DNA of 64,000 nt from the NCBI GenBank assembly GCA_003056165.1, contig LSNR01000014.1:70408-134407 (forward strand), given 5' to 3'. The DNA is from Parcubacteria group bacterium M6-OD1-3 (GTDB lineage Bacteria; Patescibacteriota; Minisyncoccia; Moranbacterales; UBA9337). Positions 44,929-52,485 of the stretch are shown here, piece after piece; the stretch's first letter is position 1; each line of letters begins with the position of its first letter. The notes under the pieces were generated by a model, which searched no databases, was not told where the DNA came from, and worked only from the letters and a program-made list of their open reading frames with translations. The translations under genes and the position numbers were made by a program.

Positions 44929-44964
44929 TAAAGAACCTATTTTTTCTGTCTAAGAAGGGAAGTA

Positions 44965-45018
44965 TCCATTTAAATAACCATTTAAATAACCATTTAAATA
45001 TCCATTTAAATAACCATT
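44965..45018 (+). repeat. Tandem array (4-5x) of a 12-13-bp unit (A)TCCATTTAAATAA containing the palindromic core ATTTAAAT; candidate operator array or island boundary
   Basis: Read directly: atccatttaaataa ccatttaaataa ccatttaaata tccatttaaataa ccatt. It lies immediately upstream of the AbrB-like gene 45032. Confidence 0.7.
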
Positions 45019-45031
45019 AAAAAATAAAAAT

Positions 45032-45214
45032 ATGAGAAGAAAACTTGAAGATCGTAGTATAAGAAAAATTTCTAAGCGTGGTTCTGGTAGTTACGGCGTA
45101 ACTATTCCAATTGAACTCGTTCGTCAATTAAAATGGCGAACAAAACAAAAAGTTATCATCAAAAAATCTGGAAACAAACTAATTATTGAAGATTGGAAAC
45201 CTACTAGACGATAG
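45032..45214 (+). CDS. AbrB/SpoVT-MazE-like small DNA-binding protein, paralog of 26275
   Basis: MRRKLEDRSIRKISKRGSGSYGVTIPIELV…LIIEDWKP. Confidence 0.55.
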   Translation: MRRKLEDRSIRKISKRGSGSYGVTIPIELVRQLKWRTKQKVIIKKSGNKLIIEDWKPTRR

Positions 45215-45280: not shown

Positions 45281-46120
45281 ATGAAAAAAGAATTAAAAAA
45301 CAATAAAGACATTGCTGTTTTTGAACGAGGGGAAGTAAGAAAAGTTTGGAAAAAAGAAAAATGGTATTTTTCAGTGATTGATATTGTAGCTGTGCTGACT
45401 AATCAAAGTGATTTTAAAAAAGCAAAGACTTACTGGACTACATTAAAAAATCGTCTTAAAAATGAGGGAAGTGAGTTGGTCACAAAATGTGACCAACTGA
45501 AAATGCAATCGATTGATGGCAAGTTTTATAAAACAGATGTCGCTGATGTTGAAACAATTTTACGATTGGTGCAATCTATACCGAGTAAAAAAGCCGAACC
45601 CTTTAAATTGTGGTTAGCAAAAGTAGGGAAGGAAAGAATTGACGAAATCGCTGACCCAGAACTTGCAGTGAATAGGGCAAAAGAAATTTATGAGAAAAAA
45701 GGATATCCAAAAGATTGGATAGACAAAAGAATGCGAGGCATTGCAGTAAGAAATACTTTAACTGATGAATAGAAAAGAAGAGAAATAAAAAAGGGTTATG
45801 AATTTGGAATTTTAACCAATGAGATTTATAAAAATACTTTTAATGAAGATTATAAATCTTTGATGAAAATAAAAAACTTAGACAAGAAGAACAAAGATAA
45901 TTTGCGAGATCATATGGGAGATATTGAGTTGATATTAACAATGTTAGCCGAAGTAACTTCCACGGATATTTCTAAAGCAAAAAATTCAAAAGGATTAAAA
46001 GAAATAAAAACTGATATTAAAAAAGGCGGAAAAATCGCTGGAGAAGCAAGACAAAAAATCGAAAAAGAAACCAACAAAAAAGTTATTACTGGTGAAAATT
46101 TTAAAAAACTAAATAATTGA
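45281..46120 (+). pseudogene. DinD-like / Bro-N-domain gene interrupted by a single in-frame TAG (45770-45772)
   Basis: ORFs 45281-45772 and 45860-46120 are in the same frame. The N-terminus has a Bro-N-like motif (GEVRKVWKKEKWYFSVIDIVAVL), and the C-terminal segment (…RDHMGDIELILTMLAEVTSTD…GGKIAGEARQKIEKETNKKVIT) resembles the E. coli DinD C-terminus. Confidence 0.55.
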
Positions 46121-46172
46121 CGAATGCTGATATGAGTAGTAAGATTAGGGAAAAGATAGAGTAATTTTTTAA

Positions 46173-47210
46173 ATGTGTTTATTTATGGAAAATAAAAATA
46201 TAATTGAAAAAATAGAAAAACTTAGAAATTCACGAGTTATAACCTATATAACTAGCGACCGACAAGGTCCAGTCAATGCTAAAATTGCTGGAGATATTAT
46301 TCCAATTATCAGTAATCAATTAAGAAAAATTGGCAAAACTGATAAAATTGATTTGTTTTTGTATAGTGCTGGTGGTGATACTATGGTTCCTTGGCGTATG
46401 GTTTCGATGATTAGGGAATATTGTAAGGAATTTTCTGTGTTAATTCCGTATAAGGCACATAGTTCTGCTACTATGATTTCTTTGGGTGCAGATAAAATTG
46501 TTATGAGTGATTTATCAGAGTTATCACCGATTGATCCTTCAACCGCTAATGTTTTTAACCCAGTTGACCCGCAAAATCCACAAAGTCGAATTCCAATTTC
46601 AGTTGAGGATGTTATGGCGTATTTTGATCTAGCGAAAAATAAATTTGGTATAAAAAATGATGAAGATCTAACTAAAATTTTTAACAAGTTTATAGACTCT
46701 AATCCGCAAATTCATCCTTTAGCACTTGGTAATGTAAATCGTACGCATAATTTAATTAGAATTTTAGCAAAACGATTATTAAAAAGTCATCAAGAGCCAA
46801 TGAAAGATGATGTTATTGATAAAATTGTTGATAATTTTACAGAGAAATTATATTCACACCAATATTATATTGGTCGCAAAGAAGCCAAGGAAGACTTAGG
46901 AATTGAATCGGTTAAATATGCGGAGGATGACTTGGCTAATGCAATGACTGAACTATATGAAGCGTATAAAAAAGAAATGGAATTAGATGTTATTTTTAAT
47001 TCAGAAAATGAATTAGGTGAAAATGTTTCTGTAAATAAAAAGGAATATAAAATAGCATTTGCAGAAAGTGCAAGTTTATCAAATTATTTTAACCTATCAA
47101 TTGAATTTAAAAAACAACAAATAACCACGACACAACAAACTCCACAAGGACCAATGCAAATCCCGCAAGAACAAGTTGGCTTTAAGATTATTGGACAAGG
47201 GTGGAAGTAA
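46173..47210 (+). CDS. ClpP/S49-fold 'SDH' (serine dehydrogenase proteinase)-family serine protease-like protein with an unknown C-terminal extension
   Basis: …LYSAGGDTMVPWRMVSMIREY…VLIPYKAHSSATMISLGADKIVMSDLSELSPIDP… resembles the SDH/S49 pattern SPGG…AMSGGTLIALAADEIIM…GPVDP. First gene of a tight three-gene operon. Confidence 0.5.
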   Translation: MCLFMENKNIIEKIEKLRNSRVITYITSDRQGPVNAKIAGDIIPIISNQLRKIGKTDKIDLFLYSAGGDTMVPWRMVSMIREYCKEFSVLIPYKAHSSATMISLGADKIVMSDLSELSPIDPSTANVFNPVDPQNPQSRIPISVEDVMAYFDLAKNKFGIKNDEDLTKIFNKFIDSNPQIHPLALGNVNRTHNLIRILAKRLLKSHQEPMKDDVIDKIVDNFTEKLYSHQYYIGRKEAKEDLGIESVKYAEDDLANAMTELYEAYKKEMELDVIFNSENELGENVSVNKKEYKIAFAESASLSNYFNLSIEFKKQQITTTQQTPQGPMQIPQEQVGFKIIGQGWK

Positions 47211-47232
47211 TAAATAATTAAAAAATAAAAAT

Positions 47233-47865
47233 ATGGAAAATAAATTAAATAAGTACGATTCAATATTGGCTGCTGTTGAATTTGCTGATCCAATGATTGA
47301 GGTGCAAAAAGCGCTGGATGATAGCCAGTTATTAAAAGATAAAAAATATAGTTTAGGATTGTCAGAGGCTAGTATTAAAAAAATAAACCCTCAAAATCCT
47401 TCTGAGGTCTTAGTCTCTCTAAATAGGATACAACTTCAAGAATCTGAGTTTTTAGTTGAAAAAAGTAATGAAATTATAAATATTATTCAGTCGCTTAATG
47501 AAGCTAGGAGCGCTGTAGTGAATAATTCTGTTAATAAAATTAAATTTTGTGGTGCAATTTTTACCATAAAACACTTAATTGATGACAAAGAAATTGGCAC
47601 AATAGAAAAAATCTTTAATTTAAAAAATGTAAATAAAGAAACAAGAAGTTTTAATTTTAAATCAGATGATAGTAAATATAATTATAATATTGTTACGGAA
47701 TTTGATTATAAAGTAAAAAAGCATTTAAAGATAATTTTTGATGTAAATAATATACACCAAACGGAAGAAAAAAAAATTGAACAACTGGAAGATATTATAA
47801 ATGAAATAAAAAATAAAATAGATAAAAAGAAAAACTTTTTTAATTTTATTGAAACTTTATTATAA
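47233..47865 (+). CDS. Hypothetical protein (210 aa), middle gene of the protease operon
   Basis: Follows the upstream gene after a 22-bp gap. No family was recognised. Confidence 0.5.
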   Translation: MENKLNKYDSILAAVEFADPMIEVQKALDDSQLLKDKKYSLGLSEASIKKINPQNPSEVLVSLNRIQLQESEFLVEKSNEIINIIQSLNEARSAVVNNSVNKIKFCGAIFTIKHLIDDKEIGTIEKIFNLKNVNKETRSFNFKSDDSKYNYNIVTEFDYKVKKHLKIIFDVNNIHQTEEKKIEQLEDIINEIKNKIDKKKNFFNFIETLL

Positions 47866-47871
47866 ACAAAT

Positions 47872-48468
47872 ATGCTTTCACAGGACAATAAAACAATTGA
47901 AGATGATATAGAATTTTTTGAAGAGCCCACTACTCCAAAAAAAATAGAGAGAAGTGTAACTTTTGATGACTTAAATCCATTAAGAGAAGCTATTATTAAT
48001 TTGGATAATAAGGCTAATAAAATAAGTAGTAAGTACGAGAAAATAGAAAAAGGTATCAAGAATCAAGAAGCAGAACTTAAAAAGCAAAAGAAAAACTTTA
48101 ACAACCAGAAAGAAATTATTAATGATCAAAAAAATGACATTAAAGCAATAAAGGCGGATCTCGAAAATCAAACCAATAGAATCCCTGAAATAGTTGGTTT
48201 GTTTTCTGCGATAATAGCAATTGTATTAATAGATGTTAGTGTGATTAAATCTGCTCAGAGTTTTCTTGGAGCCATATTGTTAATAATATCGTTGACATGT
48301 TCTATTGCTATATTTGCTGTGTTAATACACTCCTTTTTTTCGCCAGATGATAAATCTGAGTTTGGTAAATCATTTTGGGTGCCAATAAGCATCCTCATAA
48401 TTTTTGTAATTATAGGAGGCGCAACTTATTTCACAGGTAATGATTTGTACAAATTTTTGGAAAAATAA
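47872..48468 (+). CDS. Coiled-coil protein with three C-terminal TM helices
   Basis: N-terminal charged coiled-coil (…KKQKKNFNNQKEIINDQKNDIKAIKADLENQ…) and then three hydrophobic helices. Follows the previous gene after a 6-bp gap. Confidence 0.5.
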   Translation: MLSQDNKTIEDDIEFFEEPTTPKKIERSVTFDDLNPLREAIINLDNKANKISSKYEKIEKGIKNQEAELKKQKKNFNNQKEIINDQKNDIKAIKADLENQTNRIPEIVGLFSAIIAIVLIDVSVIKSAQSFLGAILLIISLTCSIAIFAVLIHSFFSPDDKSEFGKSFWVPISILIIFVIIGGATYFTGNDLYKFLEK

Positions 48469-48543: not shown

Positions 48544-49554
48544 ATGGTGGTAAAACAAAAGAAAAAGGTTATAGTTAAAACACTTTTTTCTGAAAACAAA
48601 AAGAATACCAAAAAGAATATAAAATTTACATTCATAGATTTATTTGCAGGGATTGGTGGTATTAGATTAGGCTTTGAAAAAGTTGGAGGAGAATGTGTTT
48701 TTACTTCTGAGTGGGATAAATTTGCAGCCGAAACATATCGAGAAAATTTTGAGGAACTTCCTTACGGAGATATAACAAAAATTATTCCAGAAGAAATCCC
48801 GCCTTTTAATATTTTGCTAGCTGGTTTTCCATGCCAGCCATTTTCAAACGCAGGATTAAAAAAAGGTTTTGATGACACCAGAGGAACTCTATTTTTTGAT
48901 ATAGCAAGAATTATTAAACATCATAAGCCAGAGGTTGTTTTTCTTGAAAATGTAAAAGGTTTCAGGGGGCATGATAAGGGAAACACCTTTAAAACTATAA
49001 AAAGGAAATTAGAAAGTTTAGGATACAAAGTATTTGACAAAGTGTTAAATGCAAGAGACTTCGGTGTACCACAAAATAGAGAGCGTATTTATATAATTGC
49101 ATTTTTAGATAAAAATATTAATTTTGAATATCCTGTTGAAAATAAAAAAACAAAACTTGGGAACATATTAGAGCAGTTTGTTGATGAAAAGTATACTCTT
49201 TCAGACAAGCTTTGGGAAGGACATCAAAGAAGAAAAAAAGAACACAAAGCAAAAGGCAATGGATTTGGATATTCTATATTTGATAAGGATTCTAAATACA
49301 CAAGCACGATGAGTGCTAGATATTACAAAGACGGTTCTGAAATTTTAATTAAACAAAATGGAAAAAATCCAAGAAAACTTACTCCTAGAGAAGCGTTGCG
49401 CTTGCAAGGATATCCAGATACATATAAAATTATAGTTAGTGATACACAAATGTATAAGCAATGTGGTAATAGTGTAGCAGTGCCTGTAATAAAAGCGTTG
49501 GCGAAAAAAATCATGGAGACAGATGTAAAATTTAAGAAACATAATTTTAAATAA
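48544..49554 (+). CDS. DNA (cytosine-5)-methyltransferase, closest by motifs to M.HhaI
   Basis: Motifs I (FIDLFAGIGG), IV (GFPCQPFSNAG), VI (ENVKG), VIII (QNRERIYII) and X (QCGNSVAVPVI), with M.HhaI-like flanking residues (RGTLFFDIARI). Confidence 0.9.
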   Translation: MVVKQKKKVIVKTLFSENKKNTKKNIKFTFIDLFAGIGGIRLGFEKVGGECVFTSEWDKFAAETYRENFEELPYGDITKIIPEEIPPFNILLAGFPCQPFSNAGLKKGFDDTRGTLFFDIARIIKHHKPEVVFLENVKGFRGHDKGNTFKTIKRKLESLGYKVFDKVLNARDFGVPQNRERIYIIAFLDKNINFEYPVENKKTKLGNILEQFVDEKYTLSDKLWEGHQRRKKEHKAKGNGFGYSIFDKDSKYTSTMSARYYKDGSEILIKQNGKNPRKLTPREALRLQGYPDTYKIIVSDTQMYKQCGNSVAVPVIKALAKKIMETDVKFKKHNFK

Positions 49555-49555
49555 T

Positions 49556-50578
49556 ATGAAAATTAACAAGCTTAAAATAGAAAGAAGAGTGTTTAATATT
49601 AATTTAAAATTTTATTTTTTCTTAAAACACTTGGTAAAAATTAAATTATCAGATATTCAAGCGAGTAAGCTTTTTAAAGTATATACTTTAAATCAAAAAA
49701 TAGGATACAAAAGAAATATTACAAAATTAGTAAAATTTACAGAAGCTGAGCTAAAAAGTGGGAGCGATAAACAGAATTTTTTATTTGATATATTAGATGA
49801 GATAGATAGTAGTGTTGATTTAAAATTGTTTATTTTTAGTTTAAATTTGTACATGATTAAAGATTTGCTTTTGCAAGAAGCAAAGCTTAAAGATTTATTA
49901 GATACATCAAATCTTGATAATTTAGATCCGTTATCCTTAGAATATGATAAAATAACCTTGTATAGTCCATATTCGACGAGGGTAAATGGTGCTTTATTAT
50001 CATTGATATTTTTTGATAAATTGGAAAAACAAGAGGCTAATTTTATTTCAAGGGATGCTGACAATTTTGTGAAAAAATTGTCAAAAATTGCGATAGATTT
50101 AAAAAATAAAGGATTGGAGCCAAATCAGATATTTATGTTGATGTTTAGCGAAAGCATAAATCAGTCTATAATAAGTGATAGTGGGTCAAATTATGAAGAT
50201 AGAATTTTAGTAGTTCTAACTTCCATAGGGATTGATGAAGCTAAAATAAAAAAAACTCATGATAAGAATGACGCCTCAACTGAGTTTGATTTTTTCTTTG
50301 AGTTAAATAATAAAACCTATGGAATAGGGGCAAAAAGGACATTAAGAGAAAGATACAAGCAATTCATTAAAACTGCTCAAATGAGTCAAATTGATATAAT
50401 GATAGAAATTACACTAGGTTTAGATTTAAACGAGGAAAAAGCAAAAAATATTCTTAAGCACGGTATTTATATTTTTTTGTCTGATGAAGTTTATCAGTCG
50501 AGAGATTTTTTGAAAAAAATGGAAGGTGTTTTTTCTGTGAAAGAGCTGACATTAAAAACATTAAAATATCTAGAATAA
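49556..50578 (+). CDS. Putative cognate type II restriction endonuclease (unknown family)
   Basis: Its start overlaps the methyltransferase stop (TAATATG), and it is 340 aa. The only support is the typical R-M gene arrangement. Confidence 0.4.
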   Translation: MKINKLKIERRVFNINLKFYFFLKHLVKIKLSDIQASKLFKVYTLNQKIGYKRNITKLVKFTEAELKSGSDKQNFLFDILDEIDSSVDLKLFIFSLNLYMIKDLLLQEAKLKDLLDTSNLDNLDPLSLEYDKITLYSPYSTRVNGALLSLIFFDKLEKQEANFISRDADNFVKKLSKIAIDLKNKGLEPNQIFMLMFSESINQSIISDSGSNYEDRILVVLTSIGIDEAKIKKTHDKNDASTEFDFFFELNNKTYGIGAKRTLRERYKQFIKTAQMSQIDIMIEITLGLDLNEEKAKNILKHGIYIFLSDEVYQSRDFLKKMEGVFSVKELTLKTLKYLE

Positions 50579-50864: not shown

Positions 50865-51335
50865 GTGATCAATAATAAAAGTGTAAAGATTATTTTTTTG
50901 TTCACTATGAAAATAAGTAAAGATTTAGCTATTAAAATTTTAAAGTATTTGGATCAGCATAAAAGTTTTTATTTTCCTTTTTTAGTGATGTGCAAAGAAT
51001 ATACGGAAGAGGATAATGATTTTGTAGAAATTGAGCCAGAAGAATGGAAAAATATCGCAGAAAATGATATATATCAAACATTTGAGTTGTGGGAGAATTT
51101 ACAAAATTTAGATGAAGAAACATTAGAATTAATGTCGAAAGGATTTATAGAAAAGATTGAAAGTAGAAATGTAATAGATGAAATTTCAAAATTAGCGAAA
51201 GAATATAGAAAGAAATGGAAGGTGGAGTTATGGGAATCTGAAGATATTGAAGAATTTGGGATGAATGAATATTATGGTGGCAAAGCTGAAGGACTTGAGG
51301 AAGCACTCGAAATATTACAAGAAGTGAAATTATAG
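50865..51335 (+). CDS. Hypothetical acidic protein (start may be the internal Met MKISKD…)
   Basis: ORF of 156 aa, strongly acidic. Confidence 0.4.
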   Translation: MINNKSVKIIFLFTMKISKDLAIKILKYLDQHKSFYFPFLVMCKEYTEEDNDFVEIEPEEWKNIAENDIYQTFELWENLQNLDEETLELMSKGFIEKIESRNVIDEISKLAKEYRKKWKVELWESEDIEEFGMNEYYGGKAEGLEEALEILQEVKL

Positions 51336-51599
51336 GCAACTGGATTTTGGGTAAAGAAGTCAAAAGATTATAATTTTCTTTTAATTATGCACGAGCATTT
51401 GTTTGTATTTCAGAAATAAAAGTAAAAAGAAGAATAGTGGATATGAAAATGAAAACAAGAATTAAAACAAAGAAAAACAAAAGTATGACATTTCTAAATG
51501 TAATTGACAAAAACAAAAAATCTCTTGATTTTTTTGTTAAAATAGGTTAGCTTGAAGTTAGTATTTTTGAAAAATTAAATAAAAACAGGGGGGCGAAGA

Positions 51600-52226
51600 A
51601 TGAAAAAATTAATAGAAGAACTTAAAATAAGGTCTATCGAGGATGCTTTATTTTTTGGCTCGATGACGATTTTGGCTGTTCTAAAGAAAAGAATAGCTCA
51701 ACAAGAATTATTCGCGAATAAATTGAGGGAGCTATTAAAAGTTCCTAGCACAAGTGATATTGAGCTAAAGTCTACTAATAAGAATTTGGTAGTAATTAAC
51801 AAAGAAATTAAAGCACTTAATTCATTAATTCTTGAAGCCAGATGCAAGCCACCTTTAGTTCCTTACCGCGAGGATTGGTTTACAATGAATGAGGAAGTTA
51901 TTTGCTTTATTGATGGAGAATTTGTGCCGGCGAAAATTTATAATAATAGAGATACATACAAAGATGGTACGGTTGCTCTGGCTGTTGTTTACGGCAGGCG
52001 AGTCAGACCGGATGGTTTTTTCAGCGGGTACGGAGATATGTATTCTATCTCCGACCCGCGAATTATGAAAAAATGGGAATATGAATATTTTTGCCAACAT
52101 TTTCGCTTTGCAAAAAAGTGGGCAATAATGGCAGAAGAAAAGGACTCAGGATTTAACTCTTTTGAATTCATGACCAAGATATTTGCCATTTCATGTGCCA
52201 AAGGGTATATGAAATGGAAAATATAA
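51600..52226 (+). CDS. Hypothetical protein; the 3' half has elevated GC
   Basis: 208-aa ORF with a GGGG-containing RBS-like stretch upstream (acagggggg cgaag-aATG). Confidence 0.45.
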   Translation: MKKLIEELKIRSIEDALFFGSMTILAVLKKRIAQQELFANKLRELLKVPSTSDIELKSTNKNLVVINKEIKALNSLILEARCKPPLVPYREDWFTMNEEVICFIDGEFVPAKIYNNRDTYKDGTVALAVVYGRRVRPDGFFSGYGDMYSISDPRIMKKWEYEYFCQHFRFAKKWAIMAEEKDSGFNSFEFMTKIFAISCAKGYMKWKI

Positions 52227-52272
52227 TATATTGGCATAGTTTTTTATTAAAAATCAAGATGGAGAAAAAAAG

Positions 52273-52485
52273 ATGGAAATCCCAACGGTTATTAATGGTC
52301 GAAGTGTTAGAATTTCAGTTCCCGAAGGAGCAGTGCTTGGTGATTTAGCACAGCTTACTCAAATGGAAATGCAAATTTCCCCTGATCAGGAATTGGTTGT
52401 AGCTAAAAATGGAAAGCCTTGTGTTGTTAGTCAGGACCATATACTGTGTCCCGACGATGTTGCTGTTTGGCGACAGAAGGATTAA
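52273..52485 (+). CDS. Small (70 aa) possibly beta-grasp (ThiS/MoaD-like) protein lacking a C-terminal GG
   Basis: VINGRSVRISVPEGAVLGDL…ELVVAKNGKPCVV…D.L.PDDVAV resembles the ThiS pattern. GC is elevated. Confidence 0.35.
   Translation: MEIPTVINGRSVRISVPEGAVLGDLAQLTQMEMQISPDQELVVAKNGKPCVVSQDHILCPDDVAVWRQKD

Follow-up and report, generated by a model that had tools for sequence, protein, structure and literature searches.

We analysed a stretch of 64,000 nucleotides (nt) from the genome of Parcubacteria group bacterium M6-OD1-3 (contig LSNR01000014.1, positions 70,408 to 134,407), which we call the window. We found that a locus of three genes within it, p1, p2 and p3, is a rare form of a mobile unit that is itself widespread and in which a constant serine protease (here p1) is joined to interchangeable small gene modules. 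We infer, with about even confidence, that the locus belongs, as one variant, to a modular conflict system that moves horizontally and most likely provides abortive-infection or toxin-antitoxin-like immunity against phages.

The three genes are co-directional open reading frames (ORFs) on the + strand at 46173-48468, with intergenic gaps of 22 and 6 base pairs (bp). This operon-like layout agrees with an earlier description of the locus made from its DNA alone (the sequence-only reading), and the gene order was the same in an independent read-set assembly. The genes on which the argument depends are the following, with positions in the window and lengths in amino acids (aa):

46185-47210, + strand: p1, SDH-type ClpP-fold serine protease, 341 aa (PF01972, phrog_11747, more than 2251 homologues, and the N-domain of an AlphaFold2 (AF2) model); an alternative upstream ATG at 46173 would give 345 aa
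47233-47865, + strand: p2, 210-aa soluble alpha/beta protein of unrecognised family, a rare ‘type A’ middle gene (family searches gave no match)
47872-48468, + strand: p3, 198 aa, a putative membrane effector, in which a variable N-terminus and a coiled-coil are combined with 3-4 transmembrane (TM) helices that form a conserved block
48544-49554, + strand: C5 cytosine DNA methyltransferase (PF00145, E 9e-111; PADLOC MTase_II, E 1e-129)
49556-50578, + strand: 340-aa ORF, presumed restriction endonuclease partner, beginning 1 bp past the methyltransferase gene (EcoRII-C, weak, E 0.016)

The start of p1 is almost certainly the ATG at 46185, because almost every homologue listed has a length of about 341 aa and because this start was chosen in the gene calls of independent assemblies of the same locus.

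The main evidence for a modular unit comes from a survey of protease neighbourhoods, in which the ORFs of protease loci were called and clustered; 81 species remained after removal of duplicates. Loci are given below by L numbers and ORF clusters by c numbers. The gene directly after the protease (position +1) belonged to 46 different clusters in the 81 species loci, and at times there was none. The nearest relatives of the window protease (92, 87, 86 and 84% identity) had other partners or none. DNA similarity between loci ended at the ends of the protease ORF. The modules found behind the protease included:

c2: a protein of about 200 aa with an N-terminal TM helix, in 15 loci and as the +1 gene in 11
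c10 with c9 or c148: a DUF6941 protein, then a coiled-coil single-TM protein
c25-c26-c27: a protein of about 210 aa, a small protein and a PIN-domain protein
c16-c17-c18: a protein of about 216 aa, a TumA-antitoxin-like protein and a 161-173-aa protein
c39 with c40: a GNAT acetyltransferase and an isochorismatase, in Smithella
c38 with c30: a protein of about 215 aa, then a p3-type protein

A TM protein was part of many modules (c2, c9, c148, c30, c135, c149 and c15), and other modules contained toxin-antitoxin parts, namely the PIN domain and the TumA antitoxin-like protein. The latter, c17, was the sole protein of the other modules with a PADLOC match (PDC-M44A/TumA). On the same strand, the gap downstream of the protease had a median of 14 bp and was at most 30 bp in 47 of 67 cases, whereas the upstream gap had a median of 58 bp. 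Because the downstream gaps are short and the upstream gaps longer, the protease looks like the first gene of an operon. A promoter-like site upstream of p1 in the window (TTGACG-17-TAAGAT, 46117-46145, + strand) fits this difference; it is a consensus match from a scan that was not enriched over its own shuffles. No terminator-like site was seen between p1, p2 and p3 in the same scan, which performed no better than on shuffled sequence.

The sequence-only reading had treated p1, p2 and p3 as a system. As a fixed set of three genes this proposal did not survive, given the 46 different +1 genes in 81 loci. A tblastn search over 80 species loci found p2 in none of them and p3 in three, which together with the varying downstream genes rules out a fixed three-gene system. 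As a recurring unit, the proposal held. When metagenomes were scanned with the p3 alignment as query, 31 loci were found, of which 25 had enough upstream DNA to be informative. The protease was followed by a middle gene of 209-255 aa and then by p3 in 23 of these 25, and the proteases were 48-77% identical to p1. The same order was present in L038, L061, L074, L088 and L090, while in L030 a p3-type protein followed a DUF6941 protein instead.

Traces of rearrangement were found in several loci. Copies of the 3'-end of the protease gene, 47-77 nt long and 88-93% identical, lie 0.15-1.6 kilobases (kb) downstream of the intact gene, beyond the modules, in four loci (L009, 10585-10661; L019, 5648-5694; L028, 9181-9252; L047, 9723-9794). 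L066 contains two protease genes, and modules lie directly upstream of the protease in L085, L068 and L038. These results suggest that tandem protease-module units exist. Taken together, the 3'-end copies and the tandem units also suggest that recombination between copies of the protease gene exchanges the modules. Insertion of the protease unit into the hrcA-grpE-dnaK-dnaJ heat-shock operon is recurrent and was found in 12 of the 81 loci (among them L015, L044, L047, L061, L073 and L079).

The protease itself is very constant. Homologues of p1 formed more than 2251 clusters at 90% identity, and the best 120 were all 74-100% identical to p1. One tight clade, of 70-100% identity, accounts for more than 2000 clusters. 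In a library clustered at 50% identity the p1 clade was reduced to a single representative, 75% identical, and the next relatives were at most 47% identical; the wider protease family comprised 428 such clusters at E below 1e-30. A search of species genomes gave 120 p1-clade matches among 185,579 genomes, all at least 70% identical. The hosts were mostly Patescibacteria, together with Omnitrophota, Desulfobacterota (Smithella/Syntrophaceae and further ‘delta proteobacteria’, with contigs of 1.3-2.8 Mb), Nitrospirota and Bacteroidota. Among 80 of the 120 loci, four genomes carried two protease copies with different modules. From the distribution and identity of the clade, the protease is therefore a rare, accessory and horizontally transferred gene under very strong purifying selection.

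The position of the unit next to a restriction-modification (R-M) system is also recurrent. R-M or GmrSD genes were found within -4 to +5 genes of the protease in 28 of the 81 loci (35%), so that the R-M neighbourhood pointed out in the sequence-only reading is not a coincidence. The positions clustered at offsets +3 to +6 and -2 and fell to near zero beyond ±7. The types counted were N6/N4 methyltransferase, ResIII, GmrSD_N+HNH and C5 methyltransferase, and a methyltransferase lay at most five genes downstream of the protease in 17 of the 81 loci. Of the R-M pair named in the window, the methyltransferase is well supported by its PF00145 match; the 340-aa ORF is a presumed endonuclease, because its sole match is the weak one to EcoRII-C. 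Fic, Phd, RadC and PDC-S13-like genes were also recurrent near protease loci.

The protease assignment rests on several family matches. Residues 3-127 of p1 matched Pfam PF01972 (SDH_protease) with 50.9 bits, against a gathering threshold of 31.3 (E 1.4e-13), although the match takes in profile positions 33-162 of 286 only. Against the NCBIfam equivalog NF047768, ‘SDH family Clp fold serine proteinase’, p1 scored 58.9 bits compared with a cut-off of 250 (positions 22-147 of 260). By these scores, p1 represents a subfamily related to, yet distinct from, NF047768. Residues 8-271 matched phrog_11747 of PHROGs, a family listed as of unknown function (E 3e-39), and residues 190-298 gave a weak match, below cut-off, to NF047641, ‘FFLEELY motif’ (E 8e-4). 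The residues past 127 align full length with relatives of 35-48% identity. Thus, the SDH-type ClpP/S49-fold N-domain recognised in the sequence-only reading is supported, but the C-terminal part that was described there as an extension of unknown nature belongs to the whole family and contains invariant residues (E141, R186, H225, R231 and W340).

Residue conservation was read from an alignment of p1 with 23 relatives of 31-46% identity. In addition to the five residues just named, of which W340 is C-terminal, G63, G64, P88, S93, T96, D117, P118 and A234 were invariant. The nucleophile and oxyanion motifs of the ClpP/S49 fold (GG...; ...HS(A/S)xT...) are present in p1, as are the motifs SAGGD, YKAHSSATMISLGADKIVM and SPIDP quoted earlier. 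From this conservation, Ser93 (in the motif KAHS), Asp117 and His225 are candidates for the catalytic set of p1, which would then be intact. Hydropathy indicated no TM segment. We take p1 to be a cytoplasmic and apparently active serine protease. The AF2 model of p1 had a predicted local distance difference test (pLDDT) score of 65, with a confident ClpP/SppA-like N-domain and a confident C-terminal beta-sheet. A sequence search of the PDB with p1 gave nothing meaningful; when the model was compared with the PDB by Foldseek, the best solved-structure matches were SppA and ClpP, both weak (E 0.03 or worse).

These structural matches raise the possibility that p1 takes part in housekeeping, as a processing or quality control protease for membrane proteins like SppA, or like an NfeD/STOPP protease, whose substrate is stomatin, a coiled-coil membrane protein and partner of the protease. 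The NfeD/STOPP-stomatin operons and SppA share with the p1 unit the ClpP/S49 fold, and an operon in which a protease gene accompanies that of a coiled-coil membrane protein, its possible substrate, is reminiscent of NfeD-stomatin operons. The 12 loci inside the heat-shock operon would also suit such a role. However, the p1 unit contains no SPFH/Band_7 or NfeD domain by Pfam, p1 is soluble and without a TM segment, and the gene is accessory and mobile, with a rare and scattered occurrence (120 matches among 185,579 species genomes). Furthermore, the partners are variable, the contexts resemble islands, and some genomes contain several copies with different partners. We therefore consider a housekeeping function very unlikely.

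A second alternative is that p1 is a phage prohead (head-maturation) protease within a prophage. It draws on weak matches to NF045542 (32.7 bits compared with a cut-off of 120) and to phrog_1684 (E 4e-7, over 70 residues only). Against it, no capsid, portal, scaffold, terminase or integrase gene was found around the unit in the window or in those related loci that were examined, and no member of the p1 clade was found in 2.9 million viral contigs (IMG/VR). When the p1 model was compared with viral models by Foldseek, the best matches were giant-virus ‘serine dehydrogenase proteinase’ proteins of PF01972, not prohead proteases. In addition, the prophage relative in Escherichia coli, described below, occupies a moron slot on the strand opposite to the late genes. 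This explanation is effectively refuted. The sequence-only reading had named two findings that would count against its own proposal of a defence module, failure of the genes to co-occur elsewhere and a prohead protease match with phage genes nearby; the searches found that the genes do co-occur and that no capsid or terminase gene is near.

The second gene of the unit remained as unrecognisable as first described. p2 had no match in Pfam, NCBIfam or PHROGs, and in PADLOC only AbiEi at E 0.26. Among 5.8 billion proteins, p2 had relatives in a single further cluster (55% identity), and L088 contained one more (54% identity). The AF2 model of p2 had a pLDDT of 51 and was unusable. The middle gene occurs in at least two forms: type A is found in the window, in L086/L094 and in L088, whereas type B (c38-like) is commoner. 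Comparison of type A p2 with the type B middle protein and with c25, c16, c10 and c2 gave hhalign probabilities of at most 2%, while c25 and c16 were weakly related to each other (hhalign, 78%). On these comparisons, the p2 of the window is a rare and probably non-homologous alternative to the usual middle gene.

The third gene, p3, matches its earlier description as a charged coiled-coil protein with a C-terminal TM block, which we count as 3-4 helices. It consists of a coiled-coil-like charged region and a very conserved TM block (QKNRIPEIVGLFSAII...LTCS.AIFAVLIH.FF), and its family comprises 14 clusters. Within the TM core the polar residues E106, D121, K126 and H153 were invariant or nearly so in the p3 alignment. 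PADLOC gave coiled-coil noise only. The N-terminus of p3 varies with the type of middle gene, whereas the TM core is constant. Among the p3 relatives in L094-L124, those linked to type B share with the c9/c148 partners an N-terminal [ST]-T-G-[GD]-like motif before the coiled-coil; the c9/c148 proteins with this motif are those of L009, L018, L022, L024, L037, L043, L049 and L052. The window p3 and the other p3 proteins linked to type A share DL.P[LI]R.AIINL.N.A instead. A p3 N-terminus that depends on the middle gene is compatible with an interaction of the p2-p3 type, not proof of one, and the N-terminal motif of the membrane partners may be a recognition or cleavage site.

Based on these results, we propose a model for how the unit could work. 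The protease would be the constant catalytic hub, and the downstream module would supply two further parts. In the window, p2 would serve as regulator, sensor or inhibitor, and p3 would be the toxic effector, acting by damage to the membrane or its depolarisation. Upon a trigger such as infection, the protease would activate p3, either by removing its variable N-terminal/coiled-coil part or by degrading p2. The outcome would be death or arrest of the cell, backing up the neighbouring R-M system. The modules with PIN/TumA-like antitoxin-toxin genes fit the logic of a hub, because antitoxins are classic protease substrates. By analogy, the proposed p1-p3 logic resembles that of bacterial gasdermin systems, in which a linked protease frees a membrane-damaging effector and abortive infection follows. 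The gasdermin systems differ in that their proteases have caspase-, trypsin- or subtilisin-like folds. Neither p2 nor p3 matched the gasdermin families of Pfam, and p3 carries ordinary TM helices.

An extended form of the model would make the nearly invariant ClpP-fold protease a universal executioner hub into which dozens of unrelated sensor/effector modules (membrane proteins, PIN- or TumE-type toxins) plug, and would make the unit a second-line guard of the adjoining R-M system that fires when R-M is overcome. We regard this extension as unlikely. It has a counterpart in PrrC, which with EcoprrI forms an R-M-linked second-line abortive system, and in both cases a suicide module would stand immediately beside R-M. 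There is no protein homology between PrrC/EcoprrI and the p1 unit, and an R-M-guarding relation is here pure speculation.

It is also conceivable that the unit is a selfish addiction module, which would maintain the mobile island together with its R-M genes through post-segregational killing, with the protease degrading a labile inhibitor of the toxin. The PIN or TumA-type toxin-antitoxin modules behind the protease, the spread of the unit by strong horizontal transfer and its position beside R-M genes, which are themselves addictive, would all be expected of such a module. On the other hand, integrase, transposase and plasmid genes were not found beside the unit in the loci examined, and DNA homology ends at the ends of the protease ORF. 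We judge addiction to be distinctly unlikely as the function of the unit.

Several observations weigh against a defence unit organised around the protease. PADLOC-DB v2.0.0 gave no match for p1, p2 and p3 or for most modules, which also bears out the earlier statement that the trio resembles no described system. Immune components do not usually retain about 75% identity from one phylum to another. In compact genomes with genes on one strand, moreover, genes are often separated by short gaps. Structural support for a relation of protease and substrate was unobtainable, because the AF2 models of p1 and p2 were weak. The remaining observations concern the bond between protease and module, and they would be better accounted for if the two were independent neighbours. 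The protease would then be a self-sufficient single-gene unit, for defence or another purpose, for example one that acts on a phage or host protein, and p2 with p3 would be a separate membrane toxin/regulator module in a shared island or hotspot. Solo proteases lie among housekeeping genes in L007 and L127, and the E. coli relative is stand-alone; the protease can therefore work without a module. Conversely, in L122/L124, one locus in two samples, a middle gene and p3 lie between dnaK and dnaJ with no protease (3259-4510 in L122). Finally, the proteases do not group by module: identity among the p3-linked proteases was 0.747 within and 0.754 between groups, so that there is no sign of co-adaptation of protease and module.

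Other observations count against independent neighbours. p3 stands behind the protease in 23 of the 25 informative loci despite the rarity of the protease clade, and the gaps downstream of the protease are consistently tight. The 3'-end remnants of the protease beside modules, together with the tandem units, suggest that protease plus module is the repeating unit. We therefore consider independence, the leading alternative, somewhat unlikely, and return to the modular conflict system in comparing the unit with known systems.

DefenseFinder lists a system named FS_HP_SDH_sah (PMC13532340), for which the name only, and not homology to p1, was confirmed. By description, it and the p1 unit are alike in that a PF01972 protease shares a mobile element or island with an uncharacterised protein and is treated as anti-phage. 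The p1 unit differs in its hosts, which are Patescibacteria and other groundwater phyla, and in its dozens of alternative partners, a comparison made by name and description only. FS_HP_SDH_sah is said to come from phage-inducible chromosomal islands (PICI), reportedly in work by Fillol-Salom et al. in Cell in 2022. We take it to consist of two genes, a hypothetical protein and SDH_sah (PF01972), presumably without an effector of 3-4 TM helices. Apart from the name of this system, the literature searched contained nothing on PF01972, FFLEELY, DUF6941 or Clp-fold SDH proteases in defence. The Tai paper (PMC11364771) proved to be unrelated.

The relative in E. coli, annotated ‘SDH family Clp fold serine proteinase’ (NCBIfam NF047768; WP_044064371 / WP_086714419), is 38% identical over 84% of p1. 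It is like p1 in its full-length architecture, in its invariant Ser/Asp/His and in being an accessory gene on a mobile element. The gene was present in 47 of 5426 complete genomes. In lambdoid prophages it is flanked by the genes of the Q antiterminator and the lambda-type holin and is read from the opposite strand (L091, 2229-3224; L093, 5001-5996; iss nearby in one case). Unlike the p1 unit, it is a stand-alone moron with no partner ORF. No reported function was found for it in the literature searched.

Other features of the window lie on either side of the unit and the R-M pair:

45032-45214, + strand: small protein of AbrB/MazE type, DNA-binding or antitoxin-like, which marks the upstream edge of the island (PF04014, E 9e-8)
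45281-46120, + strand: disrupted Bro-N / PADLOC PDC-S13-like gene, split into 45281-45772 and 45860-46120

The split Bro-N gene matched PDC-S13 with E values of 1e-72 and 7e-24 over profile positions 3-158 and 189-270 of 286. It is a neighbour of the unit, and we do not claim it as a member. In L008 the protease is directly followed by an intact PDC-S13-like relative of 277 aa, and in L019 by an 80-aa fragment of one. Directly upstream of the AbrB/MazE-like ORF, five head-to-tail copies of the 12-nt sequence AAATA(A/T)CCATTT occupy 44960-45022, an arrangement that resembles an array of operators or iterons. Three ORFs of 156, 208 and 70 aa at 50865-52485, past the R-M pair on its downstream side, may be further island cargo; those of 156 and 208 aa had no match in Pfam, NCBIfam, PHROGs or PADLOC. 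Farther out, the trio is surrounded by ordinary housekeeping genes, including those for Ile- and Pro-tRNA ligases, triose-phosphate isomerase, aldolase and glycosyltransferases. No tRNA gene, Rfam match or phage structural gene was found in the region, and the window contains no convincing repeats flanking the unit. GC skew was positive throughout the window except in the first kilobase, and all substantial ORFs between 36 and 58 kb were on the + strand. This pattern is compatible with a single replichore arm of a small genome of the candidate phyla radiation (CPR). The low G+C content, like the placement of genes on one strand, also suits a Patescibacteria (CPR) genome.

In sum, the locus is best filed as an SDH-type protease-based candidate defence system. 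Three of its features are undescribed: a protease conserved very strongly across phyla, dozens of interchangeable modules, and a positional tie to R-M. To our knowledge, few defences have been characterised in CPR/Patescibacteria. If our interpretation is true, a widespread and uncharted immune or conflict system would exist in ultra-small groundwater bacteria and several other phyla. Its unusual design would offer a way to study the triggering of membrane effectors and toxin-antitoxin modules by proteases, and new effector modules could be sought with the protease gene as a simple marker. The E. coli prophage protease, a relative in a tractable host, would thereby also acquire a function. Should the hub also prove to guard R-M, it would represent abortive-infection immunity of a new class, defined by its organisation and with its centre in CPR/Patescibacteria.

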